Positions 9,047-53,520 of a DNA stretch of 64,000 bases are shown here, in pieces. Below the pieces are notes generated by a model. That model was not told where the DNA came from and ran no database searches. It was given only the letters and a program-made list of their open reading frames with translations. Position numbers and translations under genes: made by a program. This DNA comes from a virus. The stretch is taken from the IMG/VR virus record IMGVR_UViG_3300045141_000294; one strand, given 5' to 3'. The number at the start of each line of letters is the position of its first letter. Positions within the stretch are counted from its first letter, which is position 1.

Positions 9047-9376
9047 TCAGGCCTCCTCGGGCTTGGTCGCTGCGGTCAGGGTCTCGGCTGCCGGGTAGTC
9101 ACGCTTGCCGGTCAGGGCGGCCAGGGTCTTGCGCTGGGCCTCGGTGTACTGGACGACGTACTCGTAGTGGTCCCCGGCCAGCACCTCGACCTGCTGCACC
9201 TCCACAGGGGTGCCCCAGGCCCCTGAGCGCACCATCCGGAGCACCCGGGTGATCGCCTGGACCCGACCGTCGGCCCGGCGCACGTAGCGGCCCACCTGGA
9301 GGCTCGCGGGCTTGGGGGGAGCGGGGGTGCTCGCGTCGATCTGGATGCTCGGGAACATCGGGGTGTGGTCGCTCAT
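9047..9376 (-). CDS. hypothetical protein, first gene of an early operon
   Basis: Directly downstream of a conserved promoter/leader module. Confidence 0.65.
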   Translation of the reverse strand: MSDHTPMFPSIQIDASTPAPPKPASLQVGRYVRRADGRVQAITRVLRMVRSGAWGTPVEVQQVEVLAGDHYEYVVQYTEAQRKTLAALTGKRDYPAAETLTAATKPEEA

Positions 9377-9450
9377 GTGGCTCTCCTGGGTGCTCGGTCT
9401 CTCTGGCTACAGCCAAAGGTACACCAAGGAAGGCAGGTGGAGAAGGGGTT
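9377..9450 (-). promoter_or_regulatory. conserved early promoter + leader module
   Basis: CTTCTCCAC..TTCCTTGGTG-TACCTT..GCCAGAGAGACC..GGAGAGCCAC-ATG. Confidence 0.7.
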
Positions 9451-11811: not shown

Positions 11812-11909
11812 GGGAGGCTCCTGTCATGCTTGCTGATGGCAACGAGTTTCTTGGTAAACACCAAGAGAGTCTGAACCGGACGCTACTCCGTGCCGTATCC
11901 CCATGCAGC

Positions 11910-12067
11910 AAGGACCGGACACCCTCCCCCGATGGTGTCCGGTCCTTCTGTGTGTGCCGTGCTGTGGTGCTGGAGACACCCGCTCCCCCGATGCGGGTAC
12001 CTCCTGGAGTGAGACGCCGCAGTCCAGGAACCATGACGCAGGTTCCATGACCCGGGGTCTGACTCCA
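11910..12067. ncRNA. candidate structured RNA / hairpin array (first hairpin may be a terminator)
   Basis: 14-bp stem 11910-11947 and 6-bp stem 11978-11998 share the loop tcccccgat; branched stem 12005-12067. Confidence 0.4.
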
Positions 12068-12086
12068 TCCCAAGGGCTCCAGCGGC

Positions 12087-17440: not shown

Positions 17441-18415
17441 TCACAGGTCGCAGTTGCTCAGCGCCTCGTCCAGAGCCGACCGGGCCTCGTCGACCCACTC
17501 CTCGCTGGCCTCGCCCTCGATGGTGCCCTCGCCGCCACAGGTCTCGCACTGGGTGGTGCCCTCGCCGTCGCAGGTCGGGCAGTCGTCCTCTTCGCTCTCG
17601 ACGACCTCCCACTCGTCGGCGTCCTCCTCGGGGTGAGCGGCCAGGTAGGCGTCCAGGTTGGCCTGGGCCACCTCCTCGGTCAGGTAGCCCTCCTCGTCGA
17701 GGCTCTGGGCATCCGGGCCGGTGGCGTACCACTTGGAGGTGCCCTCGGCCTTGCCGGTGCCACCGCACTCCTCGCAGTCGACATCGCCGGTGCCCTCGCA
17801 GTCACCGCAGGCATCGTCCCACTCGGGGGCCTCGGCGTTGCCGATCTCGTCGACCCAGGCCTCCAGGGCCTCGACCTGCTCGCCGAGCACCGAGCCCTCA
17901 CCCAGGCCCTCGGGCATGTTGTCGAGGCTCTCCTGCTTCTCGTCCAGGAAGTCCTGGGCCATCGCGGCCAGGTCGTCGCGCAGGGCGTCGAAGTCCTCGG
18001 CAGCGGTGAACTCGTAGGACTGGATCAGGTCGCTGCCCTCGCTCATGATGCGAGCCACGTTGGCCGAGGCCGACGAGGAGTAGTCCCAGACGTTCCAGTC
18101 CGGGTGCTCGGCGTGCCGGTTCAACTGGCGCCCGCCGTAGGGGCCGGACTTGGGGCTGATGTGCTTGTACGGCGTGCCGATGGCGATCTTGCCGCCGTTG
18201 ATGTCGCAGCCGTGGAAGTCGCAGCGCAGCAGGTCCAGGGGCTGGTCCTTGTCGGCGACGGTCTTGGTCATGAAGACCGGGCCGCGCTTGGAGACCTTCT
18301 GCTCGCCGGTGCGCTTGTTGATCACGGGGGTCTTGACGGGCTGGCCGTCCTCCCCCAGCACGGGCACGGTCTTGTAGCGCTGCTGGGCCTTGGCGACTCG
18401 GGTGATGCGGGCCAT
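17441..18415 (-). CDS. acidic protein with DnaJ-type CxxCxGxG zinc-finger repeats
   Basis: CGDCEGTG, CEECGGTG, CPTCDGEG, CETCGGEG; no J domain. Confidence 0.8.
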   Translation of the reverse strand: MARITRVAKAQQRYKTVPVLGEDGQPVKTPVINKRTGEQKVSKRGPVFMTKTVADKDQPLDLLRCDFHGCDINGGKIAIGTPYKHISPKSGPYGGRQLNRHAEHPDWNVWDYSSSASANVARIMSEGSDLIQSYEFTAAEDFDALRDDLAAMAQDFLDEKQESLDNMPEGLGEGSVLGEQVEALEAWVDEIGNAEAPEWDDACGDCEGTGDVDCEECGGTGKAEGTSKWYATGPDAQSLDEEGYLTEEVAQANLDAYLAAHPEEDADEWEVVESEEDDCPTCDGEGTTQCETCGGEGTIEGEASEEWVDEARSALDEALSNCDL

Positions 18416-18495: not shown

Positions 18496-18539
18496 ACAAG
18501 ATGTTTTCATGAATCTTGGCCCATGCCAGACTGTCACCC

Positions 18540-19277
18540 GTGACTGGACGTGGCGCATGGCCCAACAAGGGCACAGGCGGGACCCTGAACTTCGACCGGA
18601 CGGCTCCTGGGCCGTACTACGCCCTGGCAGCCGGGGACATGTTCCCGGTGGGCTCGGACAAGCACTCGACCGACATCAACATCCGGGCCGTGCACGCCGG
18701 GGTCTTCGCCATCCAGCGGGCTCTCAACCGGCGCTTCAAGGACGACATCAAGGTGACCGGCATCTTCGACGACCCCACCGCCGATGCGGTGATGAAGTTC
18801 CAGCGGGAGCGGATGACCGGCCAGGTGCCGTGGCCCGGGGTAGGCCCGGAGACCTCCCAGGCCCTGTTCAGCCCGGACATCAAGGCCCGCTGCAAGAAGT
18901 TGGGCTGGGCCGACCCGGCAGTGGTCTGCGGGGTGATCAAGAACGAGTCCAACTTCGACCCCGGCGCCGTGGGGTTCGTCGATGACTCCGACCTGGGGCT
19001 GGCCCAGATCAACGGCCCGGCCCACCCCGACAGCAGCGAGGGCGAGCGGCTACAGCCGATCTACTCGATCGACTTCGTGATCGGCTACCTGGCCAACGCC
19101 ACCAAGGCCCTGCGGGACGAGGACCTGGCCATCGCCTCCTACAACCTCGGCCTGGGCGGCGCCCGCACATGGGACAAGGCCGGGCGCCCCAACCCCTACG
19201 CCCCGGCGCCGGGAGCCCCGGCCCGGGACGTAGAGGCCTACATCCAGCGGATCAAGACGGCCTGCCGGACTACCTAG
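18540..19277 (+). CDS. peptidoglycan-binding domain + soluble lytic transglycosylase (GH23-like)
   Basis: AIQRALN..GIFDDPT..AVMKFQ..GPET (PG-binding); IKNESNF..GLAQIN..ASYNLG (SLT); likely leaderless GTG at 18540 (ORF track starts at 18516). Confidence 0.8.
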   Translation: MTGRGAWPNKGTGGTLNFDRTAPGPYYALAAGDMFPVGSDKHSTDINIRAVHAGVFAIQRALNRRFKDDIKVTGIFDDPTADAVMKFQRERMTGQVPWPGVGPETSQALFSPDIKARCKKLGWADPAVVCGVIKNESNFDPGAVGFVDDSDLGLAQINGPAHPDSSEGERLQPIYSIDFVIGYLANATKALRDEDLAIASYNLGLGGARTWDKAGRPNPYAPAPGAPARDVEAYIQRIKTACRTT

Positions 19278-21009: not shown

Positions 21010-21065
21010 GGGTGGCTCTCCTTCGTGTCGTGGAGATGCCAGAATAGCACCAAGAAACCTTGGAG
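21010..21065 (-). promoter_or_regulatory. conserved promoter + leader module (variant)
   Basis: CCAAGGTTTCTTGGTGC-TATTCT..GGAGAGCCACCC-ATG. Confidence 0.6.
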
Positions 21066-24000
21066 TCATGAAGAGCCCAGCGAGAAGTTCTCCCACTCCC
21101 CTGCGATGACGCACCAGACCTCATCGACATCCCAGGTCATGCGTTCGATCTTCGGGAGGAAGCGAACGTGGTACTTCGAGTACGAGAGGGTCAGATGTGG
21201 GGTGAACTCGTGGTCGGTGCGCGGTGAGTAGCCGCCCTTCTCCAGGGCATGGATCAGCCGCTCGTGCATCAGGTTGACCCCGGGGATCGCCACGCTGGCC
21301 CACATGACGTGCTGGCCGTCCTCGTCGGCCTTGAGGAAGGTCCCGGCGCCCTGGGTGGTGGCGCTCAGCGGCATCTCGGCCTCGGCCCAGGCCGCCACCA
21401 CCTCGGGCAGGTCGCGCAGTTGGGCCTTGGTCATCTCGGTGGTCTCGCCCAGGTAGGCCAGGGTGATGTGCAGGCTGTCGACGGGCTCGGTGCCGTCCTC
21501 CTGCACCAGGGCCTCGGCCACCTTCGGCGGTGGCACCAGGGCCACCATCACGCCCTTGGAGTGGTCGGTGTCCTTGGCAGCCTGGTGCTGCTGAGGGAGC
21601 GAGGGAGCATGCGGTGCGAGCCGGAACTCCTTGGGCCACTCCGGCTTGCTCGGTGGGATGACCTCGGTCACCGGGTGGTAGTCCATGCAGGAGATGCACA
21701 TCCCGACAAGCGACCCATCGGGCTCTCGACTCATGGCGCGGGGCAGGTGGCCGGTGCCGTCGCAGACCTCCTCCTTGGCGGCGGTGTGCTGCTGGGGGAG
21801 GCTCTTCGAGCCCACGGAGAGCACGTCGCTGGGTGCGCACATCTCCGGGGTACGGCCCTCATGGGTACCTCGCCACTCCTCCGGGATGGACTTGGGCGGC
21901 GGGTTGCCGCGTGCTCCCTTGACCTCGGAGTCGTACATCCGGCACACCCGCAGCGGGACGTGGGACCAGCCCGCCCGCTCGGCTGCGGTGAGCCGGTGGT
22001 TGCCCTCGCCCAGGGATGCCACGTTCTCCTCGTTGTGGTGCAGCAGCATCAGCGGGTCAGTCATCCCCCGGCCATCGCGGAGTTGGCTGGCGATCTCGTC
22101 GACCTTCTGCTCCGAGCCCGCGTGCTGCACCCCGGAGTGCTCCCGGAACCTCTTGGCCACCTCGATCGGCACCCACTCGGCGTGCGGGTAGCCGTCCCAG
22201 CCGGACAGGTCGTCACCGGGGCTGTAGCCGGGCCTGGTGGCCTGCCTCTCGGCATGCTCCCTGACCCGTTGCTGGTACTCGGCATCGTCGTCCTTGGCGC
22301 CGAGCCGGTGCTGGAAGGTCGTCGAGTGGGCAGGTGTACCGGCCTCCTCGGGGCTCACCGCATCACGCCAGGAGCGCCCGTCACCGGACAGCCGGTCGGA
22401 GTGCTGGATGCCCGGGGTGATCTCCAGAGCCCTGCGGAACATCTCGGCCCCCAACCCTCGGCGCCGGTGCTCGGAGGCGACCTCGGCCTTGTCGATCTTC
22501 GGGCCGAACGAGGGGTTGTCCTTGTACGGGCCGTCGCCGGGGTCCCACCACGACAGACGACCGATCTGAGTGCCCTCCAGGAAGGCGTTGAGGGAGTGGT
22601 GCCCGCTGGGCCTCCCCTCGCTGTAGGGGTCCCTGGGAGGGCTGTGCCGGTACTCCACCGGGTCCGGGTCGGGGCGATCCTTGACCCCCTCCTTGCCCTT
22701 CAACTGGTCGTCGATGTGCCGCTCGAAGGTGCCCGGGGCGTAGTGCGGGGTGGTCTTGTCGATGTGGTTCATGAACCTGCCCCGGACCTCGGGGTCGTTG
22801 AGCATCTTCACGGTGCCGGGAGGGTTGGAGGGGTCGGAGGCGAGCAGGTCCATGAACTGCTCCATGGCGTCCCGGAAGTCCAGGTCGTCATCTTCCTTGG
22901 CGCCCTCGTGCCGCAACTCGTCCTCGCTGTGGAAGGGCAACTCCGGCTGGCGCCCGTGGTGCTCCTCGGCATGGCTGATGTCCGGGCCGTTGTAGCCCCA
23001 CTCGTCAAAGGCGTCCTGGCTCCAGTTGACGTGCTTGGCGGGCACCGTGGCCTTGAGGATGCGGTAGTCGTCGTCCTCCGGGACGTTCGACATGCCGTGC
23101 TGCTGGGCATAGCCGGGATGCAGGGTCACCCAGTCACCGGAGTGGATGTCGGTGACGTGGTGGGGGACCGCCCGGTAGATGCTGACCGGGGCCTCGGGGT
23201 TGCCCCGGGCCTTCTTCATCTGCTGGAAGGCCCCCATGGCGTTCTCGTAGCCCCGCTTGGCGTCCCGCCACTCGATCGAGCAGTGGTAACGGGACACCGA
23301 GCCGGGAGGCCGGGGGCCGTTGTGGTACTCGGGGTGCTCGTAGAGGTCATCGGGAAGTTCGTGCAGAGCGGGCTCCTCCGGCCCGGCTGGTCGATGGCTA
23401 CCCCGCCAGTCGTACTCGGCGAGGTGCTGGAGCAGGGAGCCCTCGTGCATCCAGTCGTCGTCGTGGTCGGAGTGCTCGCACCAGGACGGCTGGACCTTCT
23501 CGGCACCAGGCACGAACTTGTGGACGTCGCAGGGCCAGTGCCCGACCTTCTTGACCTTCTGGATCACCGGCTCGTCGTCGTGACCGAAGCCGGTCCACTT
23601 CCCCTGCACCAGGTGGGCTCGACGGTCCGGTGAGGTGTTGCGGCCCCTCCGGCAGTCTTCGAGGTGCCCCTGGAGCATGTCGTGGGTGTCGTCGTGCATC
23701 TCGGTGTTCTCGGGGTCGTGCTCCCACAGGTCGCAGTGCTCGGGGCCTCCACAGCCCTCGTAGTGCTCCCCCCGGTCCATGTCGTAGTCGGGGTCCATCG
23801 GCTGGCCGTGCTTGTCCAGGTCGTAGACGCTGACGCCCTCCTCACGATGCCCGGTGATGTGGTTCATCGAGCGCTCGTCGGCGGGCCAGTCCCCGAACCG
23901 GACGTAGGTCGGGTGGGGGTGGTCGAAGCCGAACGCCCGGTTGTGCTCCTGGGAGTTCGAGGCCATCCCGAAGTGCCGGAGCAGCGAGACACGCTGGTCG

Positions 24001-25181
24001 ATGTGGGCCTGCTCGAAGTTCCATCGGTCTCGCACCTTCGGGTCCTGCCACTTCGGATGACGTCCCAGGTCCTCAACCGACTTGACCTTGCTGGAACGGA
24101 TGGCCATCGAGGTGCTGCCCTTGTCCTCGGCCTCGTTGCGGTACAGATGCGCGTCGTAGTCTCCACAGTTGGCCTGGAAGTCGAGACTCCCGGCGCCCCT
24201 GCCGTACTTGTCGTCGTCCTGGTCGGCATGGACGTAGGGACAGATGCGCGTCCCCGGGGCGATTCGGACCCGATGCAGCCGCGAGTGTGGAATATGGAGC
24301 GAGAACTCGTCTCCGGCATCCCACTCGTCCGGGTCGATCCGATCCAGGGCGGCCTGCTTCGTGCCGATGTGCAGCCAGCCGGTACCGGACCAGTTGATCT
24401 TGTCGTGGAGCCTGCGGCCATTGTCGATGACTCCAGCGTGGTACCAGTCCTGCTGGGTCGCCGGGTCAGGAGCAGCAAAGTGCTGGAGCAGCGAGGAGTG
24501 GTGGCTCAACTGCTCGGAGTACTGGCCGGGCTCGTCGAGGTCGTGGCCGCAGTGGGCACACCCACCCCAGGACGGGTCGTCCTTGCTGTGCGGGTACAGG
24601 CACTCGTGGCAGACATCGCCCTCCTCGCACGGCTCGGAGGCATGGTGCACCGAGTGGATGGTGATGTCCTCGGGGTGGAAGGCGATCGCGCACTCGTGCA
24701 GGTGTGAGCCCTCGTACTCGTTGCCGTAGGTGATCCCGTCATGGCCCTTGCTCTCCAGGTGCTCCCGGAAGCCCTGGGCGATCTCCTTGACGTGCGGGTG
24801 GTAGCGCAACTGGGAGGCCGGGTCGTGGCTGCCCTCGGGGGACAGCCCGTGGATGTCGTGGCCGTTGTCGTCCGCCCAGTTGCGGGCCGCCCGGTCGAGG
24901 TCCTTCTCGGAGTAGTAGTGCTTGGGGTTCTTGGCGGCCAGGCCGACGTGGTAGACCGCCCCGGAGTGCCCGAAGGCGATCTGGGCAGCGGTGTCGTGCT
25001 CGCTGGAGAAGTGGCTGCCCAGATGGCAGTTCCAGTGCTTGGGGTCCCCGGTGCCCTCCCGCTCCCGCACGTCCGGGTCGAACTTCTCGAAGGGCTCCAT
25101 GGTGCTGCTGCCGTGGAACCAGGGCTCCTCGATGCCAGCGGTCTTCTGCGGGAGGTAGGACCAGCCGTACCACTGGGTCAT
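21066..25181 (-). CDS. polyvalent protein 2 (1371 aa): 4 ART-like + GNAT + ParB-like + 2H phosphodiesterase domains
   Basis: WFHGS/GSHF/GHDGITYGNEYE; WYHAG/HIGTKQAALDR/YRNEAEDKGS; YVRFG/GVSVY/DEP; IYRAVP/GDWVT/EWGY; V..EHRRRGLG; EGNHRL; HITL...HLTL. Confidence 0.8.
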   Translation of the reverse strand: MTQWYGWSYLPQKTAGIEEPWFHGSSTMEPFEKFDPDVREREGTGDPKHWNCHLGSHFSSEHDTAAQIAFGHSGAVYHVGLAAKNPKHYYSEKDLDRAARNWADDNGHDIHGLSPEGSHDPASQLRYHPHVKEIAQGFREHLESKGHDGITYGNEYEGSHLHECAIAFHPEDITIHSVHHASEPCEEGDVCHECLYPHSKDDPSWGGCAHCGHDLDEPGQYSEQLSHHSSLLQHFAAPDPATQQDWYHAGVIDNGRRLHDKINWSGTGWLHIGTKQAALDRIDPDEWDAGDEFSLHIPHSRLHRVRIAPGTRICPYVHADQDDDKYGRGAGSLDFQANCGDYDAHLYRNEAEDKGSTSMAIRSSKVKSVEDLGRHPKWQDPKVRDRWNFEQAHIDQRVSLLRHFGMASNSQEHNRAFGFDHPHPTYVRFGDWPADERSMNHITGHREEGVSVYDLDKHGQPMDPDYDMDRGEHYEGCGGPEHCDLWEHDPENTEMHDDTHDMLQGHLEDCRRGRNTSPDRRAHLVQGKWTGFGHDDEPVIQKVKKVGHWPCDVHKFVPGAEKVQPSWCEHSDHDDDWMHEGSLLQHLAEYDWRGSHRPAGPEEPALHELPDDLYEHPEYHNGPRPPGSVSRYHCSIEWRDAKRGYENAMGAFQQMKKARGNPEAPVSIYRAVPHHVTDIHSGDWVTLHPGYAQQHGMSNVPEDDDYRILKATVPAKHVNWSQDAFDEWGYNGPDISHAEEHHGRQPELPFHSEDELRHEGAKEDDDLDFRDAMEQFMDLLASDPSNPPGTVKMLNDPEVRGRFMNHIDKTTPHYAPGTFERHIDDQLKGKEGVKDRPDPDPVEYRHSPPRDPYSEGRPSGHHSLNAFLEGTQIGRLSWWDPGDGPYKDNPSFGPKIDKAEVASEHRRRGLGAEMFRRALEITPGIQHSDRLSGDGRSWRDAVSPEEAGTPAHSTTFQHRLGAKDDDAEYQQRVREHAERQATRPGYSPGDDLSGWDGYPHAEWVPIEVAKRFREHSGVQHAGSEQKVDEIASQLRDGRGMTDPLMLLHHNEENVASLGEGNHRLTAAERAGWSHVPLRVCRMYDSEVKGARGNPPPKSIPEEWRGTHEGRTPEMCAPSDVLSVGSKSLPQQHTAAKEEVCDGTGHLPRAMSREPDGSLVGMCISCMDYHPVTEVIPPSKPEWPKEFRLAPHAPSLPQQHQAAKDTDHSKGVMVALVPPPKVAEALVQEDGTEPVDSLHITLAYLGETTEMTKAQLRDLPEVVAAWAEAEMPLSATTQGAGTFLKADEDGQHVMWASVAIPGVNLMHERLIHALEKGGYSPRTDHEFTPHLTLSYSKYHVRFLPKIERMTWDVDEVWCVIAGEWENFSLGSS

Positions 25182-28100
25182 GACGCACCCACCATCGGTG
25201 GGTGGTGGTACTCGTGGGTCCAGTCGACCAGCCGACCCACCGGGTCACTCGGGTGGTACTCCAGGTACTTCCACAGCGCGTTGGAGGGGTCCTTCCAGCC
25301 CTGCCCCTGGGCCGAGAAGGCGTGCCTACGGTCGTCGTGCAACTGCTCGTAGAGCATGGCGCCACGTCGAGCCCGGTCCACCGGGTCCTTGATCTGGCCG
25401 ATGGCGTCGACCAGGGCCAGGTAGGCCTCGGCCTGGTCCCACAGGCTCTCGTCGAAGGACCCCGGCCCCCACTCACTGGACACCTGGGGAGGCTTGACCA
25501 CCCAGCGGTCGGTGTCGACCAGGTAGGCGCTGTAGGGCTTGATGTCACGGATGTTCCAACTGGCCGGGTTGGAGTAGGCGGTGACGTGCCACTCGTGGCC
25601 ATCCCAGGGCGCCAGGTAGTGCTCGTCGTTGTAGGACCTGCGGAACAGCCCGGTGATCTTCGCGCTGATCTGGTCATCGGTCAGGTCGGCGTCATCGGGA
25701 TGGGCCTTGCGGAACTTCCGGTAGTTGACCCCGACCAATAGGTCCAGGTCCCGGTTGCCCGGGTTCCACCAGTACGACGCCGCCCCTCCGGCGATGTAGT
25801 TGCGGCACCAGTCCCGCCAATCCGGGTAGACGCCGCCCACGGCCTGGTCCAGGCGGCCCATGACCACCTTCTTGACCCGGGGCCGCAGGTGCTGGCCCTG
25901 GGTCCACAGGGAGGGCTCCAGGATGCCCTTGGTGGCCGAGAAGATGCCCTGCTTCGGCAACCACGGGTGCTCCTTGGTGTAGCCGGGCAGCAGGGCGGCC
26001 TCGGCATGGCGCAGCACCTCGCACGGCAGGTGGGAGAGCCCGGCGTCGTCGGCTGCGTGGATGCGGTGGTTGCCGTTGAGGACCCGGCCATCGAGGAGCC
26101 GCACATGGTCGTCGTCGTCGTCCACGTCCTCCGCGTTGTAGCCGTGCTGGCTCATCTGCCGGGCGTACTCGGCGACCTTGGCCTCGTCCACCACGTCGCT
26201 GTCGCGGGGCAGGGCCATCTGGAGCAGGTCGGCCACCGGGATGTCCTGGGTGCGACGTCGAGCGGCCTGGTGGTACTTCCACTCGCCCTTGCCGGTGTTG
26301 CCCTTGTCCGAGCGGCCCCAGCGCTCCACCGAGCCGTTGTTGTGGTAGCGGTTCACCTCGTCCAGGAAGTCGTCGGGCTCGTCGTGGATCGCCGCGATGT
26401 GGGCATGGTCGACCCGGCCCGGTCGGCTGCCGGGCTTGACGAAGTAGGACTCCCGGTTCTCGTCGTAGTCGTGGACCGGGTGCATCCGGTCGACGTGGGT
26501 GACCTTGATGGTCTTCGGGTCGAAGGCGATCGCGCAGTAGTGCTGGTTGGGTCCCTCGACGCCGTTGCCGTAGGTGATCCCGTCGTGGCCGTCGTAGCGC
26601 AGTTGGCTGACGTAGGCCCCGGCCATCTCGTGCTGCCGGGGGTGCCACTGGAAGTGCGCCTCGATCGCGCTGTGGGTCTGACGTGGTGAGGCTCCTCGGG
26701 CGATCCGCTGGTTGATGCCCTCCCGGGTGGCGCCGGAGCCGTACTGCCACTGCATGTCGCCTTCGTGCTTCTCGTCGTGGAAGCCGGAGCCCGCGCCGAC
26801 GGTCTTCCAGACGTGCCGGAGCAGCGACTCCTCGGAGTCGAAGTGGATCGGGTTCTTCATCTTCAACTGGGCATGGAAGACCTGGCCGTCCTGAGCCCGG
26901 TGCGGCCCGGCGAAGGAGTGGGCCACCGCGTGCAGGGCCGAGAAGTGCACCCCCAGCAACTTGTTCATCTGCGGGCCACCGGCGCCGTTGCCCGCTGGCC
27001 GATGACCCTCGCGGATCGCCTGGGGGTTCAGGTCCTCGTGGTCCCCCAGCGTGCCGTGGAACCACTCGTTGTGCTCCTCGTGGTACGGGTTCGGGAGGAC
27101 CCCGCTGCTGTCCTGCTTGGCCTGCACCCGCAGCCCGGTCTTCTCCTGGCTCTGGGGCTCCTCGGGCTCGTGCGGGGACTCGGTGCCACCGATGTGCAGG
27201 GCTGAGCCGTCGGAGGTGCGCCACTCGCCCAGGGCCGAGACCCGGTAGCCCCTGGCGCCCGGCTTGGGGTGCACCCGCAGGATCGAGAACTGGCTGGGGT
27301 GGGTCTCGGAGAAGGCCTTGGGCGAGTTCATGATGAAGCCCGGGTCCATCTCACCGGTGCCGAAGTGCTCACGCATCGCGGCGTGGTACTTGTAGTGGCT
27401 GCTGGCGAAGTCCAACTTCTCGTCGTCGTTCATCGGCACCGAGTGCCGGTGGTAGATGCGGCCCTTGGGGGCGTCGAAGTGACCACCGTCCAGGACCGGC
27501 TCGGCGTCGGGGTGCTTCTTCTTGATCTCGTCGGTGGTGTCCATCATCACGCTGTCCAGGACACGGCGCCCCTTGAGGCCCTCGCGGAGCCGGATCGGCA
27601 GCGTGTCGCCGTCCTTCCAGTCCTTACCACCGCCGTACTGGCCACCGACGACGTGATGCAGGTAGCCGCCCTGATGGGCCTCGTCCAGCATGTCCTGGAT
27701 GCTCGTCTTGCCGGTCACCACCGCGTGGTACTCGTGCAGCGCCCGATGGATGTGCCGGGCCACCTCGGGGTCATGGGTCAGCGAGATGGTGTCGGAGTCG
27801 CCGCCGCCCAGGCCCGAGCCGCCGTGGTTCATGTTGAGTTCGTCGCGGCTCTTGAGCGAGCCTGCGGCCAGCACCCCGGACTTGTTGGTCGTGGTGTGCC
27901 ACAGGGTCTGCGGCAGATGCTCCCAGGACAGTCCGTGATGCTCGGTGTCGTGGTAGTAGGCCCCCTGGCTGGTCTGGTCGTGGCCATGGCCCTTGTAGCC
28001 GTTGTTCCAGGCCTCCTGGGGCTCCAGGTCCCCTCGGGACAAGGCACGCCGGACCTCCCGGTCCCAGCGATGACCGTGCTCCCGAGCCCGTTCGGCCTCC

Positions 28101-29206
28101 GAGAAGTCGTCGGGGTCCAGGGCCTGGAGGCGCCGGTGCTCGTCCATGTCGATGCCCGGCTTCGGCTGCTTGTACAGCGGCTCCCCGGAGCCGAAGTGCT
28201 GGAGCAGGGCGGTCCTCATCGGGCCGAGGTGCTCCTTGTCCGGACCCGTCCAGTGGTAGCCCTTCCCCGGGAAGTAGTCGGGGCTGACGACCTCATCCCC
28301 GTGGCGAGCGCTGGTCTCCCCCTGATCGGAGTTCAGGTGCTCCTTGGACTCGTGCAGCCACTCCCAGCGGGAGTGGCTGATCTGGTGGTCGTCGAACGGG
28401 ATCGCGCACCGGTGGCCCTTGGGCGGCTCGTACTCGTTGCCGTAGGTCACCCCGTCGTGGCCCTGGCTCCGGAGGTGCTCCTTGAATCCCTCGACGATGT
28501 GCTCCCGCTCCGGGTGCAGGGTCATGTACAGGTCCAGGTGCGGGCCGGAGGCGTCCTCCTTGCCCTCCGGACGCCGGTCGATGTCGTCGAGGGCACGGCG
28601 CCCCTGCTCGTCGGTGTGGTTGTCGACGTACTGCATGTGCTCGTGGTCAGGGATCTCGGCGTAGTGCCCACCTGAGTCCAGGTGGTCCTCCCACTTGTCC
28701 TGACTCCGGGCCTTGTCGTCCAGGTAGTGGTGGCCGTTCTCGTGCGCCCAGGTGATGGCGTCGCGGGACATGTCGAACTCGGAGTCGTAGTGCTTGGGGT
28801 TGGCCATGTGCAGTTGGGAGTGCGAGATCCGCGACAACGGGTGGTGGCCGTGCCCGCTGAACACATGGGCCACCTCCGGGTCGGAGGTGAAGTGCACGCC
28901 GAGATCGGTGTTCCAGTGCTTGTCGGCGTGCATCCCGTACTCGTCGTGGAACCGGTCCGGGGTCTGCACCCGGCCCCCGGGGTCATGCGGTGGGTGCAGG
29001 GCCGGGGAGGTCAGGTGGTGGGTGGTCCCCACGTCGTAGGCCGGTTCGTCATCACCGACGTACTCGCCGTACTCGTCGTGGAACTCACCGCTGGTGCCGT
29101 GGAACCAGTGCTTGTACCGGGTCTTGGGGTTGCGGTACGGGGCGGGCATGGCGGCAGCCGTCTTCGCACCCAGGGCGAAGAACTCCGCGAGCAGGGGCAT
29201 CGGCAC
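25178..29206 (-). CDS. polyvalent protein 1 (1342 aa): 3 ART-like + ParB-like + Pol-beta nucleotidyltransferase domains
   Basis: Two WFHGT/GVHF/GHDG.TYGN..E domains; LWHTTT..LKSR..ISLT..GEW; NGNHRIHAA; GGAASY..DLDL. Confidence 0.8.
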   Translation of the reverse strand: MPMPLLAEFFALGAKTAAAMPAPYRNPKTRYKHWFHGTSGEFHDEYGEYVGDDEPAYDVGTTHHLTSPALHPPHDPGGRVQTPDRFHDEYGMHADKHWNTDLGVHFTSDPEVAHVFSGHGHHPLSRISHSQLHMANPKHYDSEFDMSRDAITWAHENGHHYLDDKARSQDKWEDHLDSGGHYAEIPDHEHMQYVDNHTDEQGRRALDDIDRRPEGKEDASGPHLDLYMTLHPEREHIVEGFKEHLRSQGHDGVTYGNEYEPPKGHRCAIPFDDHQISHSRWEWLHESKEHLNSDQGETSARHGDEVVSPDYFPGKGYHWTGPDKEHLGPMRTALLQHFGSGEPLYKQPKPGIDMDEHRRLQALDPDDFSEAERAREHGHRWDREVRRALSRGDLEPQEAWNNGYKGHGHDQTSQGAYYHDTEHHGLSWEHLPQTLWHTTTNKSGVLAAGSLKSRDELNMNHGGSGLGGGDSDTISLTHDPEVARHIHRALHEYHAVVTGKTSIQDMLDEAHQGGYLHHVVGGQYGGGKDWKDGDTLPIRLREGLKGRRVLDSVMMDTTDEIKKKHPDAEPVLDGGHFDAPKGRIYHRHSVPMNDDEKLDFASSHYKYHAAMREHFGTGEMDPGFIMNSPKAFSETHPSQFSILRVHPKPGARGYRVSALGEWRTSDGSALHIGGTESPHEPEEPQSQEKTGLRVQAKQDSSGVLPNPYHEEHNEWFHGTLGDHEDLNPQAIREGHRPAGNGAGGPQMNKLLGVHFSALHAVAHSFAGPHRAQDGQVFHAQLKMKNPIHFDSEESLLRHVWKTVGAGSGFHDEKHEGDMQWQYGSGATREGINQRIARGASPRQTHSAIEAHFQWHPRQHEMAGAYVSQLRYDGHDGITYGNGVEGPNQHYCAIAFDPKTIKVTHVDRMHPVHDYDENRESYFVKPGSRPGRVDHAHIAAIHDEPDDFLDEVNRYHNNGSVERWGRSDKGNTGKGEWKYHQAARRRTQDIPVADLLQMALPRDSDVVDEAKVAEYARQMSQHGYNAEDVDDDDDHVRLLDGRVLNGNHRIHAADDAGLSHLPCEVLRHAEAALLPGYTKEHPWLPKQGIFSATKGILEPSLWTQGQHLRPRVKKVVMGRLDQAVGGVYPDWRDWCRNYIAGGAASYWWNPGNRDLDLLVGVNYRKFRKAHPDDADLTDDQISAKITGLFRRSYNDEHYLAPWDGHEWHVTAYSNPASWNIRDIKPYSAYLVDTDRWVVKPPQVSSEWGPGSFDESLWDQAEAYLALVDAIGQIKDPVDRARRGAMLYEQLHDDRRHAFSAQGQGWKDPSNALWKYLEYHPSDPVGRLVDWTHEYHHPPMVGAS

Positions 29207-29227
29207 ACCTCCACCCCTTCGGAGGCG

Positions 29228-29455
29228 TCAGGGCGTCGGAGACAGCGCCTTGAGCAGTTCCTCCGAGGCGTCCTCACCGGCCAGGAACCCCTGACAGGGG
29301 CGCCCGTCGGGTCCGGAGTGACAGCCGATGGCCTTGCAGGGCACATCCGAGCGCTTGGAGTGGAACGAGAACGAGTGGCCGCACCTGGAGCAGCGCTCCT
29401 GCAAGACGCCCATCATGCGCTCCCTCTTGGCTCTATAGGTTTCCTTGGTGACCAT
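29228..29455 (-). CDS. small Cys-rich zinc-binding protein
   Basis: CSRCGH..H..C...C...C; start uncertain. Confidence 0.6.
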   Translation of the reverse strand: MVTKETYRAKRERMMGVLQERCSRCGHSFSFHSKRSDVPCKAIGCHSGPDGRPCQGFLAGEDASEELLKALSPTP

Positions 29456-29463
29456 ACTGTCAC

Positions 29464-29632
29464 ACCCGGCGCCCCAAGGGACAGAACGAAGCCCCCTCCA
29501 CCAGGCTCAGCAGCCGGAGGAAGGGGCTTCGTGAGGCAACTCTGTGTCCGGTCTTCCCGCGCCGGGAGAGCCAATGCCTTCGCCAGAGAGCCGTGGCAGG
29601 GCGCGTACTCGACCGGACTACAGAGGTCGCTC
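29464..29632. ncRNA. candidate small regulatory RNA carrying both conserved leader boxes
   Basis: Stem 29486-29495/29523-29532; stem 29540-29553/29611-29625 enclosing GGAGAGCCA and GCCAGAGAG; promoter-like elements on both strands. Confidence 0.45.
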
Positions 29633-29689
29633 GTGGGAAGCGTACATGTCAGATGCCGCATCAGCAACCACAATGCTTGGTAGGGAGCC

Positions 29690-31762
29690 TCAGTTGCGTC
29701 CTCGGGGACGGCCCCGCTGGTTGCGGCTGGGTGTCATGTCCAGGCGTCCCCGAGCCCTCCCGAACGACGACAGGGCAGCGATCCGCTCGTCCGAGTCATG
29801 GTCGGAGTACATCTCCCGGAACGGCGCCACACCGCCCTCCATGGCCGCCCCTGGCCGGAACGAGGACAGTTCGGTGTGCAGGAAGTTGTTGATCTGCTCG
29901 CCGATCAGGACATGGATGCACTCGGTCATGCAGTCCGCGATGTCCTTGGACTGCACCGGGCCGGAGTCGGGGTGGTCGACCCTGCCGTTGACCAGTTGCA
30001 GGAACCGCAGTTCCAACTCGGCCCGCTCCAGGTACGGCGCATGCACCAGGTCCAGGTTGATCGCGGCCTTGGCGTTCTCCTTGACCTGCCAGTCGTAGGC
30101 CCGGGTGGTGGTCTTCTCGAAGACCTGGACCCGCTTGGGCAGCCGGTTGGCGGGCTCCCGGAGTTTCTTCTGCATCCGCTGGATCGAGGACGTGGAGTTG
30201 TACTGGTCGTAGGTGAACTCACCGGGCATGAACGGCTGGATCACGTTGGCCCACAGGTACTCGTCGACATCCTCGTAGTCGATGATCCCGTCCGGGAAGT
30301 CGGCAGGGTCGAAGGCACCGATCAGGTCGAAGACGCAGTGCGGGCGCTCCTCGTCGTCGTACTCGGCGTGAGCCAGGGCGAAGCCGAACTTGTCGTTGAC
30401 CTTGGACGGGTCGGCGTGGCCCTTGTAGGTGGTGGTGAGCAGCCCCCGGGACTGGAAGGTGATCTCGGGCGGGCCGTACTTCTCCGGGCGCCCGAGCCAC
30501 GGCATGAAGATGTTCTTGACCTTCTGCTCGTTCAGGTAGGCGTCCAGGACAGCCGCCCACTTGGCCCGGCGCTCCACCTTGAACGTCTCCGGGTTGGCCC
30601 GCTCCTCTCGCGCCATCTGGGCGTCATAGACCGAGATGGCACCCCGCAGGTGAGCGAACCCAGGCAGCGGCTCCGGGCTCTCGCCCTCGGGGTCGTACTC
30701 GCCCAGGTCGCCCAGGAAGCCCTCGGGCAGCAGTGGGAAGTCCGGGTCCCCGGTGCGCTCCCAGTCCAGGTAGATGTCCCAGGAGGCCAATTGCAGGGAG
30801 AGCATGTCGGGGTAGGAGAAGGTGCCGTCCGGCTCCTTCTCGTTGGCCAGCAGCCAGTTGTCGTAGAACTGGCCGAGCATCTGCCAGGGGCTCGACGGCT
30901 CGACGATGAAGGCGTCCTTGCCGAACTGGTCGAGAGACGGCTTGGCGGCGCCGTAGACCTCAGAGGCACTGCGGTTGGCGCCGGAGGACACGACGTGGGC
31001 CATCTCGTCGTAGCCCTGCATGAACGAGGTCGGACCACGACCGGCCATCATCGTGGACTCGCGGGGCACGATCGCGAAGGTGGCCTGGTCCCGCTCGGAC
31101 CTGATCCCGCGCTGGACCTGGCGCCGCATCCGCACGAAGTCGTTGGGGGCGTAGATGGTCAGTTTCTCGGTGTGGTCCTGGTTGATGTAGGGCAGGAAGC
31201 ACTCGCTGCCGGAGATCACGTTCACCAGGTCGCCGTACAGGTTGGCCTTGGCCTGGTCCCGCTTGCCCGCGAACATCAGGGCGACCAGTTGCTTGTCCCG
31301 GTCGATCCCGTAGTAGGCCTGGGGGTCGCCCTTGGCCATGTAGCACCACAGCACGTAGGTCATGCACGCTGCCGCGATGTGGCCCTTGCCGCCACGGCGA
31401 CCGGCCACCAGCAGCACCTCGCGGAACCAGCGGTGACCCAGCGCCCGCAGCAGCCGCATCTTCTCCAGCAGGCCGGGCGCCAGGCCCTCGGTGCCGTTGG
31501 AGGCGACGAAGGCGTACTCCCACTCCTCGATGACGGCGTAGTCGTAGTCGGTGAACAGGTCCTCGCGCAGGAAGATGACCTTCACCAGGGTGGCCTGGCG
31601 CGGGTACAGGTGCCCACGGTTCAGCCAGCGTTGGCCGTAGACGAACGTGATCGGGTCCGGCACCTCGATGCCGGTGAACAACTGGTGGAACGACCCGACG
31701 CCGACGGGCAAGGGGTTGGGTGCCTGGGCAGCAACCCCTCGCAACGCCGTGTTGACGCTCAT
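29690..31762 (-). CDS. terL: terminase large subunit
   Basis: Walker A-like VAGRRGGKG, Walker B GYDE, nuclease GHADPSKVNDKFG and SKDIAD motifs. Confidence 0.9.
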   Translation of the reverse strand: MSVNTALRGVAAQAPNPLPVGVGSFHQLFTGIEVPDPITFVYGQRWLNRGHLYPRQATLVKVIFLREDLFTDYDYAVIEEWEYAFVASNGTEGLAPGLLEKMRLLRALGHRWFREVLLVAGRRGGKGHIAAACMTYVLWCYMAKGDPQAYYGIDRDKQLVALMFAGKRDQAKANLYGDLVNVISGSECFLPYINQDHTEKLTIYAPNDFVRMRRQVQRGIRSERDQATFAIVPRESTMMAGRGPTSFMQGYDEMAHVVSSGANRSASEVYGAAKPSLDQFGKDAFIVEPSSPWQMLGQFYDNWLLANEKEPDGTFSYPDMLSLQLASWDIYLDWERTGDPDFPLLPEGFLGDLGEYDPEGESPEPLPGFAHLRGAISVYDAQMAREERANPETFKVERRAKWAAVLDAYLNEQKVKNIFMPWLGRPEKYGPPEITFQSRGLLTTTYKGHADPSKVNDKFGFALAHAEYDDEERPHCVFDLIGAFDPADFPDGIIDYEDVDEYLWANVIQPFMPGEFTYDQYNSTSSIQRMQKKLREPANRLPKRVQVFEKTTTRAYDWQVKENAKAAINLDLVHAPYLERAELELRFLQLVNGRVDHPDSGPVQSKDIADCMTECIHVLIGEQINNFLHTELSSFRPGAAMEGGVAPFREMYSDHDSDERIAALSSFGRARGRLDMTPSRNQRGRPRGRN

Positions 31763-33906: not shown

Positions 33907-34260
33907 TCACCCGTCCGTCCACGGCATCTCCACAGAGGCGTCAGAGGCGTTGTCCCGCACGAAGTCGGACAGGGACTGGGTGCGATGCCCACGCACGATG
34001 CCGTCCCGGGAGTTCAGGTGGTCGTACCCGGCGTTCCTGACCCGGTGGTACAGGCCCTTGCGGGTCGAGGGGTCCGGTACCCCGATGGCGTTGTACACCT
34101 CGCGGTTGCGCCGGTCCTGCTCCTTCCAGGGGGTCAGGATGTCTGACTTCTCAGCCATCGAGGTGACCCCCTCCAGAGACTTGCGGATCATCTCGTTGGC
34201 CACGTCCTCCAGGGGCTTGTGCACCCCGAACCTGATGATCCCGGAGCCGTCGCCGGTCAT
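33907..34260 (-). CDS. hypothetical protein
   Basis: Coupled ATG. Confidence 0.6.
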   Translation of the reverse strand: MTGDGSGIIRFGVHKPLEDVANEMIRKSLEGVTSMAEKSDILTPWKEQDRRNREVYNAIGVPDPSTRKGLYHRVRNAGYDHLNSRDGIVRGHRTQSLSDFVRDNASDASVEMPWTDG

Positions 34261-34613
34261 GAGGCATCCACCAGGTCCTCGTGGAACTTGGGCAGCAGCC
34301 CGGCCTCGATCATGGTGACCAGCCGCTTGAGCCCGTTGTTGGCGTACGTCGAGACCGGGGTGGACTCCTGGATGCCCATCATCCTGGCGGCCTCGCGCTC
34401 CTTCATGTTCGCGTACAGGCACAGTTCGATGGCCTGTTGCTGGCGCGGTGAGAGACGGGTCCGGCAGGAGTACAGGTACTGGAGGTCCCAGACCGTCCAG
34501 TCGCGCCCGTCGGGTGCTCGGAGGGTGTTGAGGCCCTCGGCCTCGTACAGCGCCTCGAACGATTGGAGGTTGCGGAACAGAGCCCTCAGCACTGCGATGT
34601 CGATCGACGCCAC
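34257..34613 (-). CDS. sigma-70 region-4-like HTH protein
   Basis: LSPRQQQAIELCLYANMKEREAARMMGI; no region 2. Confidence 0.7.
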   Translation of the reverse strand: MASIDIAVLRALFRNLQSFEALYEAEGLNTLRAPDGRDWTVWDLQYLYSCRTRLSPRQQQAIELCLYANMKEREAARMMGIQESTPVSTYANNGLKRLVTMIEAGLLPKFHEDLVDAS

Positions 34614-47378: not shown

Positions 47379-48233
47379 TCAGGAGCCGAACGTGAAGGGC
47401 CGCACGACGCCCTGCCGGGCCTCGTCGGCGAACCGCTCTTTGGCCCTGCTCCGGAAGTCGGGGCCGGTCACCTCGTGGAAGGTGGACCGCTCCGAGAGCA
47501 GGCTGAGCACCGGCCCGCCGTAGCCGGTCAACAACTGCTCCTGGGTGAAGTTGGTGGTGATGATGGTCGGCTTCTCGTGGCCGGTCCGGTGCCGGATCAC
47601 GTCGTCGAACAAGGCGCTGCGGAAACTCTCCGGGTACTGAATCTGACGGGTCCCCTCGTTGTAGACCCCACCGGTCTTGTACTCCCGGCCTATGTCGTCG
47701 ATCACCAGGATGTCGGCGTTGCGGATGCGCCGGGTGAACCAGAGCAACTCGTCCTGGTCGCGCCAGGTGGCGGTGTAGGAGTCGAGCAACTCGTTGAACT
47801 GGGTGAAGTAGCCGTCGTATCCGGTGGCCAGCAGCCGCTTGAACAGCAGCGCCGAGATCATGGTCTTGCCGGTGCCGGGCTTGCCCCACAGGATCATCCC
47901 GAGCCCGGCCCGCACGTAGTTGTCGATGTGGTCCAGGTAGTCGGTGATGGCCTCCCAGATCGAGGCGGGCACCTGGTCATCCAGGTCGGCCCAGGTGAGC
48001 CGCTGGTAGGCCGTCTTGAGCCCCGAGTAGAGCATGTGCCAGTGCAGCGTCCACTGGTCGTAGCAGTCGCACTCGTGCTTGCCGTCAGGGGCGAGGTACT
48101 CCCCGGTCTTCCGGCAGATCAGGCAGGTCCGCTCGGGGTCGGACCACAGGTCCGGGAAGACCCGGCGCAGCCGATCGGTGTCGGCCTCGTCGAGTGGGCG
48201 AAGGCTGGAGGGTAGGGCAGATGGAACGGCCAT
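47379..48233 (-). CDS. DnaC/IstB-like helicase loader ATPase
   Basis: GKPGTGKT, VIDDIG, TIITTN. Confidence 0.88.
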   Translation of the reverse strand: MAVPSALPSSLRPLDEADTDRLRRVFPDLWSDPERTCLICRKTGEYLAPDGKHECDCYDQWTLHWHMLYSGLKTAYQRLTWADLDDQVPASIWEAITDYLDHIDNYVRAGLGMILWGKPGTGKTMISALLFKRLLATGYDGYFTQFNELLDSYTATWRDQDELLWFTRRIRNADILVIDDIGREYKTGGVYNEGTRQIQYPESFRSALFDDVIRHRTGHEKPTIITTNFTQEQLLTGYGGPVLSLLSERSTFHEVTGPDFRSRAKERFADEARQGVVRPFTFGS

Positions 48234-48275
48234 GGCTGGCTCTCCCGGATGGCTCTCTGGCGTAGCGGCGAAGGA

Positions 48276-53442: not shown

Positions 53443-53520
53443 GCGGCTCTCCTCGGTGATGTCTCTGGTTCCTCGACGGTACCAAGAAAAGTGGGGTCGC
53501 ACAAGGAAACCTTGGAGTGG
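53443..53520 (-). promoter_or_regulatory. conserved promoter + leader module (variant)
   Basis: TTCTTGG-TACCGT..CCAGAGACA..GGAGAGCCGC-ATG. Confidence 0.6.

Follow-up and report, generated by a model that had tools for sequence, protein, structure and literature searches.

Introduction

FinP of F-like plasmids, with FinO as its chaperone, is a structured antisense RNA that is encoded in cis opposite its single target. In cluster A mycobacteriophages, asymmetric DNA sites of a repressor protein, called stoperators, are repeated through the genome. The regulatory RNAs described in phages are mostly cis-antisense to one neighbouring gene (PMC12197685). Lambda OOP and P22 sar, two short RNAs of phages, each have a promoter and a terminator of their own and lower the expression of phage genes by base pairing (PMC12197685). 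The C4 antisense RNA blocks icd/ant expression in the P1/P7 phage-plasmids (PMC8198154). A 2025 review contains neither an example from an actinobacterial phage nor a phage small RNA (sRNA) that acts on a leader tag shared by the phage's own operons (PMC12197685). We analysed 64,000 nucleotides (nt) of DNA from an uncultured actinophage (IMG/VR virus record IMGVR_UViG_3300045141_000294, hereafter the window), 65-70% in G+C, and in it the gap between terL, the gene of the terminase large subunit, and the next gene on the same strand. On balance, this gap is best explained as an independent sRNA gene with its own promoter and terminator, the product of which would act in trans on the leaders of messenger RNAs (mRNAs) of the phage. 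What was computed from the window and its relatives is the gene-like layout of the gap and how far it is conserved, which strand is favoured, and how strongly complementary leader sites are enriched and specific to lineages.

A conserved gene-like layout downstream of terL

The non-coding gap spans 29414-29689 (276 nt), since the next open reading frame (ORF), a zinc-ribbon-like one, starts at 29413 (MGVLQE...) and not at 29455, as comparison with relatives showed. All genes around the gap lie on the minus strand. The same layout past terL, that is, a promoter-like site, a structured body and a hairpin, was found in about 25 relatives from metagenomes and Streptomyces assemblies. Searches with terL gave 20 loci in IMG/VR; metagenomes contributed 12 more and Streptomyces assemblies 2, and 649 terL relatives at E <= 1e-50 were counted in a large protein collection. 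Closer relatives, with a terL identity of 66-77%, were also fetched (L001, L285-L291, L295-L298 and L032; L298 continues the contig of L291), and the gap of the window recurs without any difference in three other contigs. A group of elements of about 155 kb includes G008 (157 kb), G006 (156 kb), G003 and G007. Two loose pattern scans of viral contigs returned chance matches only (loci L046-L284).

The promoter-like site, a TTGnnn hexamer followed after 17 or 18 nt by nAnnnT, is present on the terL strand in 24 of the 25 gaps, 1-77 nt past the terL stop or overlapping it. On the opposite strand, sites of this form are scattered and occur at about the chance rate. In the window, the site is TTGCTG-17 nt-TACGCT (29667-29639), a minus-strand string that the first-pass annotation of this DNA had already read as a possible promoter. 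In the Streptomyces elements of about 155 kb, the site is an invariant GTGGCACGATG block, and in relatives of lower GC content it carries TATAAT. From the coordinates, the distance between the predicted transcription start and the CTGGCG box of the structured body is 40-53 nt in all nine members of the window lineage. The site of the window is weak by the E. coli consensus, and the argument for a promoter rests on this conservation.

At the other end, a strong GC-rich hairpin closes the unit in every member. Nine of its 20 pairs have changed on both sides, and its wobble pairs are valid on the minus strand only. In L002 and L003, which are relatives of lower GC content, a U-tract follows the equivalent hairpin.

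Structure and strand of the putative RNA

The first-pass annotation had described an outer and an inner stem around two short boxes, and a second hairpin at 29486-29532. The boxes are where it had placed them, and both stems and the hairpin are contained in the minimum-energy folds of both strands. The folds are more stable than those of shuffled sequences (z-score -3.9 on the minus strand, -3.4 on the plus strand), and the fold energy of the window sRNA is -91.8 kcal/mol on the minus strand versus -82.2 kcal/mol on the plus strand. The terL strand gives the more stable fold in six of eight members. Eight window-lineage members share one fold. The inner stem P1 (6 bp) is retained in relatives, and the outer stem is retained as a structure with differing sequence. 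L287 and L289 have additional hairpins inserted between the two boxes; insertions of extra hairpins are common in structured RNAs. The body is larger in the 155-kb group, and a hairpin loop there again carries a YUGGCGG motif.

Covariation in relatives, which had been suggested as a check of the structure, was found. The structure tests drew on six to nine sequences, which are related to one another. In a six-sequence alignment, 87.5% of the pairing cells are compatible with pairing, compared with 45-55% when partners are slid. Twelve pairs have changed on both sides, a number that none of 500 shuffles reached. At helical positions, the window lineage has 21 G-U cells and 3 A-C cells, and the 155-kb group has 62 and 7; this excess of G-U favours the minus strand, which is that of terL. 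Judged from the sequences, the gap is likely to hold an RNA gene on the minus strand.

In the apical hairpin of the long 5' domain, an invariant CUGGCG includes a YUNR-type motif. All lineages examined carry the YUGGC loop motif, and their predicted folds place CUGG or UUGG at the apical loop, so that a YUNR-type recognition motif would be exposed. In the window lineage, GGYUCUCC, which remains largely unpaired, is found 3' of the apical hairpin.

A covariance model built on six window-lineage members finds the unit in the window at 29473-29631 on the minus strand with 129 bits and detects no second copy there. On the plus strand of the window it gives 23 bits, for the terminator part only. 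The model also recovers L289, L296 and L286, on which it had not been trained, all on the terL strand. Rfam gave no match for the window or 12 relatives at gathering thresholds, and permissive Rfam searches (E up to 10) gave spurious microRNA-type matches only.

The boxes of the gap are complementary to leaders of the window

The two boxes enclosed by the stems had been noticed as words from the 5' leaders of early genes, and the counts bear this out. The leader 5' box GCCAGAGAG has seven exact copies in the window (six on the minus strand, one on the plus strand) against 1.34 expected, and the leader ribosome-binding box GGAGAGCCA has 13 (12 minus, one plus) against 1.22 expected; of 100 shuffles each, none reached seven or 13, respectively. 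The only plus-strand copies of the two words are those in the gap (Table 1). Minus-strand copies of both recur just upstream of start codons, and most copies belong to one recurrent cassette, which consists of TTYCTTGG, TAnnnT, about 7 nt, GCCAGAGAG(ACCGAC), about 10 nt, GGAGAGCC and a start codon. The boxes of the gap are the reverse complement of the leader boxes, and therefore a minus-strand RNA would be able to pair with the leaders through box 1 (CUCUCUGGC) and box 2 (UGGCUCUCC); in the window lineage, this complementarity extends beyond 9 nt. At the position of box 2, relatives have GGCUCUCC, GGUUCUCC or GACUCUCC. Within the window lineage, C-to-U differences in both sRNA boxes still allow pairing with the leader boxes via G-U.

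The best predicted target is the leader of a DnaC-like helicase loader gene, in which 12 nt (box 1 with flanks) and 10 nt are complementary to the two sRNA boxes. The candidate target genes in the window are non-structural; they include genes for a DinG-type helicase, the DnaC-like loader, small unknown proteins and a product (17441-18415) that weakly matches Q-like antiterminators.

Duplex energies of the RNAduplex type, computed for the sRNA core against the leaders, had no discriminating power, with a background mean of -35 kcal/mol in this GC-rich genome, and for this reason exact-word statistics with a leader filter were used. In this uniform test, at least 9 contiguous nt had to be complementary to the 18 nt around the loop, and a Shine-Dalgarno (SD) motif, a start codon and an ORF with high G+C at third codon positions (GC3) had to follow within 50 nt after the site. 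The window has nine such leader sites against a mean of 0.75 for shuffled seeds (reached by 2 of 2000 seeds). The corresponding numbers are 12 against 1.14 in G008 (1 of 2000) and 6 against 1.54 in G003 (65 of 2000). Unfiltered counts of 9- to 10-mer complements over whole genomes were swamped by GC-rich coding words, and 8- to 10-mer searches with mismatches in the 155-kb genomes gave no enrichment.

Matches between the putative RNA and leader sites within lineages

In several relatives, the putative RNA is complementary to leaders of the genome that encodes it. Between the L001 RNA and a leader on the L001 contig, 14 of 15 positions can pair, one through G-U. The leader box recurs in L298, where three promoters have GCCAGAGAGACCGC 6 nt past the -10 hexamer TACTCT, and the local sRNA matches this box at 11 of 12 positions. 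Because the box follows TACTCT at only 6 nt, it very probably corresponds to the mRNA 5' end as far as the promoter sequence tells. In G006 and G008, a 10-mer complementary to the loop has five copies per genome on the gene strand and one inverted copy in the RNA gene; controls gave 0. These sites lie 6-13 nt past a -10 hexamer or on the ribosome-binding site in all five cases in G008 and in all three examined in G006. Leader sites complementary to their own loop number five in G007 and three in G003.

Seeds were also exchanged between lineages. The seed of the window matches 0-1 leaders in the 155-kb genomes, and the seeds of these genomes match 1-2 in the window. These low counts indicate that the two major lineages use different, matching pairs of RNA and leader tag.

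Together, the conserved promoter-like site, the terminator hairpin, the covariation, the strand-specific wobbles and the enrichment of leader sites in three genomes support what the first-pass annotation had offered as one of two options, namely a minus-strand RNA antisense to both boxes.

Proposed mode of action

In the explanation that we favour, host RNA polymerase would start at a sigma-70-type promoter just past the terL stop, near 29632, transcribe through the long hairpin domain and end at the GC-rich hairpin 29532-29486, which would yield an RNA of about 150 nt. The tip of its hairpin would display the YUGGC loop, and this loop together with the 5' arm (CUCUCUGGC) would find its complement in the opening bases of a family of mRNAs of the phage. 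The mostly unpaired UGGCUCUCC would be complementary to the ribosome-binding box of the same mRNAs. Pairing in trans with the leaders may begin by loop contact at the mRNA 5' end, and would govern how whole sets of non-structural operons are translated or how stable their mRNAs are; the operons of the helicase, the DnaC-like loader and many small genes are among them.

We infer that the RNA is produced and that it pairs, as well as the sign and timing of its effect, and the strength of these claims differs. We lean towards pairing with leaders as the way in which the RNA would act. That the effect is repression of early or middle operons is proposed tentatively; repression is the likelier direction because box 2 covers the ribosome-binding site. 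The widest claim is that an RNA-based master switch operates in widespread large Streptomyces phages and phage-plasmids, in which an sRNA next to terL reads a short 5' tag on many operon leaders of the same phage, in the window also the ribosome-binding box, and RNA and tags co-evolve lineage by lineage. We take this to be a real possibility, somewhat short of probable.

If this explanation is true, one sRNA controls a whole set of operons via a shared leader tag, and the system is conserved and co-evolves across hundreds of elements, as the number of terL relatives implies. Immunity or timing would then be governed genome-wide after transcription, by a circuit for which no phage counterpart has been described, and this would explain the uniform leaders of these phages. 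The system would also provide a compact, orthogonal RNA switch for Streptomyces engineering. Some related elements sit in cultured Streptomyces and Kitasatospora strains, Kitasatospora viridis among them, so the idea is directly testable.

Weighing of the evidence and alternative explanations

Several observations weigh against an independent sRNA gene acting on leaders. The two promoter hexamers of the window each match the E. coli-style consensus at 3 of 6 positions, which is below the threshold of the scan, and the promoter and terminator scan based on this consensus calls neither element in the gap. The terminator hairpin of the window lacks a U-tract. Among public RNA sequencing runs, none was listed for 28000-31500. 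The order of the boxes is also a difficulty. In the leaders, GCCAGAGAG precedes GGAGAGCC, and on the plus strand of the gap the order is the opposite, so that the box order of the sRNA does not fit one continuous antiparallel duplex with a leader. This objection is softened because GGCUCUC is present twice, which permits a colinear register of two helices. A G-A mismatch interrupts the box 1 duplex of L291/L298. The seed of the G008 type also matches 10 leaders of G003, and covariation between the two sublineages of the 155-kb group is thus not exclusive. In the complete relatives G002 and G004, the loop complement is not enriched in leaders, and its sites are in coding sequence. The covariance model gives no link between the window lineage and the 155-kb group; the only match was L033, with E 0.05. 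The proposed link between these lineages comes from synteny, layout and the loop motif, not from the score. Finally, a DNA-binding protein that recognises the word in either orientation would give part of the same pattern.

Such a protein leads to an explanation at the DNA level, in which a DNA-binding regulator of the phage would recognise the boxes at the transcription starts of many operons, with the boxes serving as operator or roadblock. The gap would then hold one inverted site, and its hairpins would serve solely as the terminator region of terL. The position of the box, 6-8 nt past the -10 hexamer, is frequent for operators, palindromic operator-like elements do occur in the promoters (CCAAGG/CCTTGG in the window and a GC-rich palindrome in the 155-kb group), and a protein site would co-vary among its copies likewise. 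Nevertheless, we regard this explanation as unlikely. The single inverted copy is always in the loop and arm of a conserved hairpin that is flanked by a promoter-like site and a terminator, and the stems covary with strand-specific wobbles. The C-to-U changes in the sRNA boxes remain compatible with pairing. Furthermore, the target copies at L302 and L306 are on the ribosome-binding site, far from any promoter.

The gap may also be read as the 3' untranslated region (3' UTR) and terminator of terL, after which the control region of the next operon begins. The role of the structure would then be to stabilise the terL mRNA or to terminate it, and short cassettes of common descent would account for the likeness to leaders. 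The region is directly past terL on the same strand, the weakness of the proposed promoter by E. coli-style consensus fits such a reading, and a processed 3' UTR would hold the same hairpins. A terminator alone, however, needs no conserved loop motif upstream of it, and promoter-like hexamers at fixed spacing are kept amid diverging sequence in about 10 lineages. Sites complementary to the loop are enriched in the leaders of three genomes. With these observations in view, a plain 3' UTR is quite unlikely, and an sRNA derived from the 3' UTR would still act as proposed above.

The other option of the first-pass annotation was a plus-strand RNA, from a promoter-like string at 29441-29463, that would be a decoy for a leader-binding factor by CsrB-like logic; such an RNA could also be an antisense sponge of the minus-strand sRNA. 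The string is present and, like the minus-strand one, stays below the E. coli-style consensus threshold of the scan. It consists of TTCCTTGG followed by CATACT, like the phage promoters with 1-2 extra bases of spacing, and an nAnnnT hexamer occurs 0-4 nt past CCTTGG in most relatives. Its reading as a promoter is confounded, since TTTCCTTGGTG (29440-29450) is the reverse complement of a CCAAGGA element that stands at a fixed site upstream of the next gene and is often palindromic. CCAAGGA is found in all close relatives, in gene orientation, 25-35 nt upstream of the small ORF; its orientation and position are kept in L001, L032, L285, L286, L289 and L291, and several relatives have it as one arm of a CCAAG-N4-CTTGG inverted repeat. 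The CACCAAGGAAACC element, outside the sRNA, probably serves the next gene as operator or promoter element. A similar string does precede the gene of the SLT transglycosylase, as had been pointed out, and this likeness over 11 nt is within chance, with 2 matches found versus 2.19 expected. The sponge itself found no support. Wobble counts and fold energies favour the minus strand, no plus-strand terminator is present before terL, and the gap has one copy of each box, two in all, whereas the loops of a CsrB-type sponge show its protein-binding motif many times over. The boxes of the favoured strand are the complement of the leader boxes and not the same words. A plus-strand RNA is accordingly very improbable.

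The least probable reading, to which we give hardly any weight, is antitermination or attenuation in cis of the nut- or put-like kind, in which polymerase coming from terL would read through the terminator into the polyvalent-protein genes by means of the hairpin and a linear GCUCU-type box: a hairpin and then a short linear conserved box do lie directly upstream of a strong terminator, and the weak Q-like match is encoded in the window, but the complementary sites in many leaders would be left unexplained, the likeness to boxA is putative, and the conserved promoter-like site suggests a separate transcript.

Genomic setting and other features of the window

The positions of the proposed sRNA gene, its parts and the neighbouring genes are collected in Table 1.

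Table 1. Position, strand and assignment of features of the window discussed in the text
Feature	Position	Strand	Remark
Proposed sRNA, about 150 nt	29478-29632	-	5' long hairpin domain, then terminator hairpin
-35-like hexamer TTGCTG	29662-29667	-	read from sequence; proposed sRNA promoter
-10-like hexamer TACGCT	29639-29644	-	17 nt from TTGCTG; predicted start near 29631-29632
Long 5' hairpin domain	29540-29625	-	outer stem 29611-29625/29540-29553 and P1 29600-29605/29558-29563
Apical hairpin, UGGC loop 29582-29585	29576-29591	-	helix 2: 3/6 pairs changed on both sides
Box 1 of the RNA, CUCUCUGGC	29582-29590	-	complementary to leader 5' box GCCAGAGAG
Box 2 of the RNA, UGGCUCUCC	29565-29573	-	complementary to leader ribosome-binding box GGAGAGCCA
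GC-rich terminator-type hairpin	29486-29532	-	folds and covariation; would end the proposed sRNA
CACCAAGGAAACC element upstream of zinc-ribbon ORF	29439-29451	-	reverse complement of the plus-strand promoter-like string
terL, terminase large subunit	29690-31762	-	PHROG 2; upstream of sRNA gene
Zinc-ribbon-like Cys-rich ORF, 61 amino acids	29228-29413	-	first gene past the sRNA
Two polyvalent proteins	25178-29206 and 21066-25181	-	next after zinc-ribbon ORF
Promoter-leader cassette with both boxes, example	9376-9407	-	in the window
Further two-box cassettes	start 14458, 15577, 17342, 18415, 20067, 56469	-	in the window
Best predicted target leader, DnaC-like helicase loader gene 47379-48233 (PHROG 50)	48233-48262	-	complementarity
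SLT transglycosylase (SLT and peptidoglycan-binding domain)	18516-19277	+	opposite to neighbours; only confirmed plus-strand gene

The terL product is 31% identical to terminases of Rhodococcus phage E3 and of cluster C-type mycobacteriophages. A conserved pair lies a few genes upstream of terL: a protein of 118-143 amino acids (aa) that weakly matches Sigma70 region 4, and after it a DUF7236 protein. The first of the two is encoded at about 34257-34613 on the minus strand of the window, at 7150-7506 in L292, at 2197-2628 in L289 and at 6574-6933 in L291. DnaE- and RecA-like genes are located further upstream of this pair, and terL is therefore placed after replication genes and does not head the structural module.

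Downstream of the gap, the 61-aa ORF has the Cys pattern CxxC ... C ... C ... C. It is 67% identical in L001, present in L032 and weakly so in L020, and has no Pfam or PHROG family match. The 155-kb group is without this ORF, and the polyvalent protein gene comes directly there. Coding sequences within the gap were considered and rejected. On the plus strand, the frames after the two boxes that look like SD-start combinations differ between the window and L001, and on the minus strand an 86-aa ORF is missing in L001. ORFs that cross the gap are not conserved and have no Pfam or PHROG match. Also rejected was a leader-class promoter in antisense orientation immediately before the inverted box, as the -10 hexamer is missing at the proper distance.

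Elements related to CCAAGGA occur elsewhere in the window. CCAAGG-N2-3-CCTTGG inverted repeats lie over promoters at 2626-2639, 21050-21066 and 53489-53520 on the minus strand, and also at 11847-11870, and a perfect CTTGGT-N4-ACCAAG palindrome is present at about 11851-11866. Other promoters of the window retain only the TTCCTTGG half. These repeats look like the operator of a dimeric phage regulator. In the 155-kb group, promoters of the target genes have a GC-rich palindrome (GCGCATC-TTGA-GATGCGC type) in the spacer between -35 and -10, with examples at L327 and L328 (G007, 73.8 kb and 75.7 kb) and L324 (G003, 95.6 kb). This spacer palindrome is likely a repressor operator directly upstream of the leader tag.

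Near the SLT gene, a -10-like CAGACT is located 8 nt before a GTG at 18541. Because this distance is only 8 nt, the SLT mRNA may be leaderless. At 11900-12070 on the minus strand, two intergenic hairpins differ in their stems and have the loop CAUCGGGGGAG in common; their sequence is unrelated to the sRNA. A protein with a Phage_ProQ_C_like domain is encoded among early genes of L298 (21523-21891) and may be an RNA chaperone; no ProQ-C-like homologue was found in the window.

L033 is the 151-kb plasmid pRLB1-9.1 of Streptomyces sp. cg35 (NZ_CP191269.1), and L034 is a 157-kb contig with terminal repeats from Streptomyces sp. MH60. The occurrence of replicons of about 150 kb in assemblies of cultured Streptomyces, one of them annotated as a plasmid, suggests a phage-plasmid lifestyle.

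Comparison with known regulatory systems

The putative RNA of the window is outside the c4, FinP, OOP and sar families, and it shares features with each of several known systems. The c4 RNA of the P1/P7 immI region uses two short loop sequences, and one of its target sites covers the ribosome-binding site. The proposed sRNA resembles c4 in being a small phage RNA with short stretches complementary to mRNA and in its two-box logic, and relatives of the window phage are also plasmid-like replicons of about 150 kb. It differs in that there is no match in sequence or structure; Rfam, which includes a c4 family, gave no true match even in the permissive searches. In addition, c4 acts on its own operon only, whereas the window RNA has 9-12 candidate leaders across the genome. 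The host belongs to another phylum, and the conserved contact of the window RNA would be at the extreme 5' end of the mRNA.

The likeness to FinP is in the way of pairing, as the stem-loops of FinP pair with the 5' leader and ribosome-binding site of the target after loop-loop contact. In contrast to FinP, the gene of the window RNA lies apart from its candidate targets, and the RNA would work in trans on many leaders. OOP and sar differ from it in the same respect, since both are cis-antisense to a single neighbouring gene. Stoperators resemble the leader boxes in that a short asymmetric word, in one orientation relative to transcription, is repeated across an actinophage genome. They are DNA sites, and hence the model for the DNA-level explanation, which does not predict an inverted copy in a conserved hairpin RNA gene.

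Bacterial trans-acting sRNAs are similar in that one short exposed seed pairs with many mRNAs, at the ribosome-binding site or close to it, and in that the RNA ends in a terminator hairpin. The difference is that the targets in the window are apparently tagged by a common 5'-terminal box in repeated promoter-leader cassettes. The regulon would therefore be built into the phage genome and not assembled from unrelated genes.

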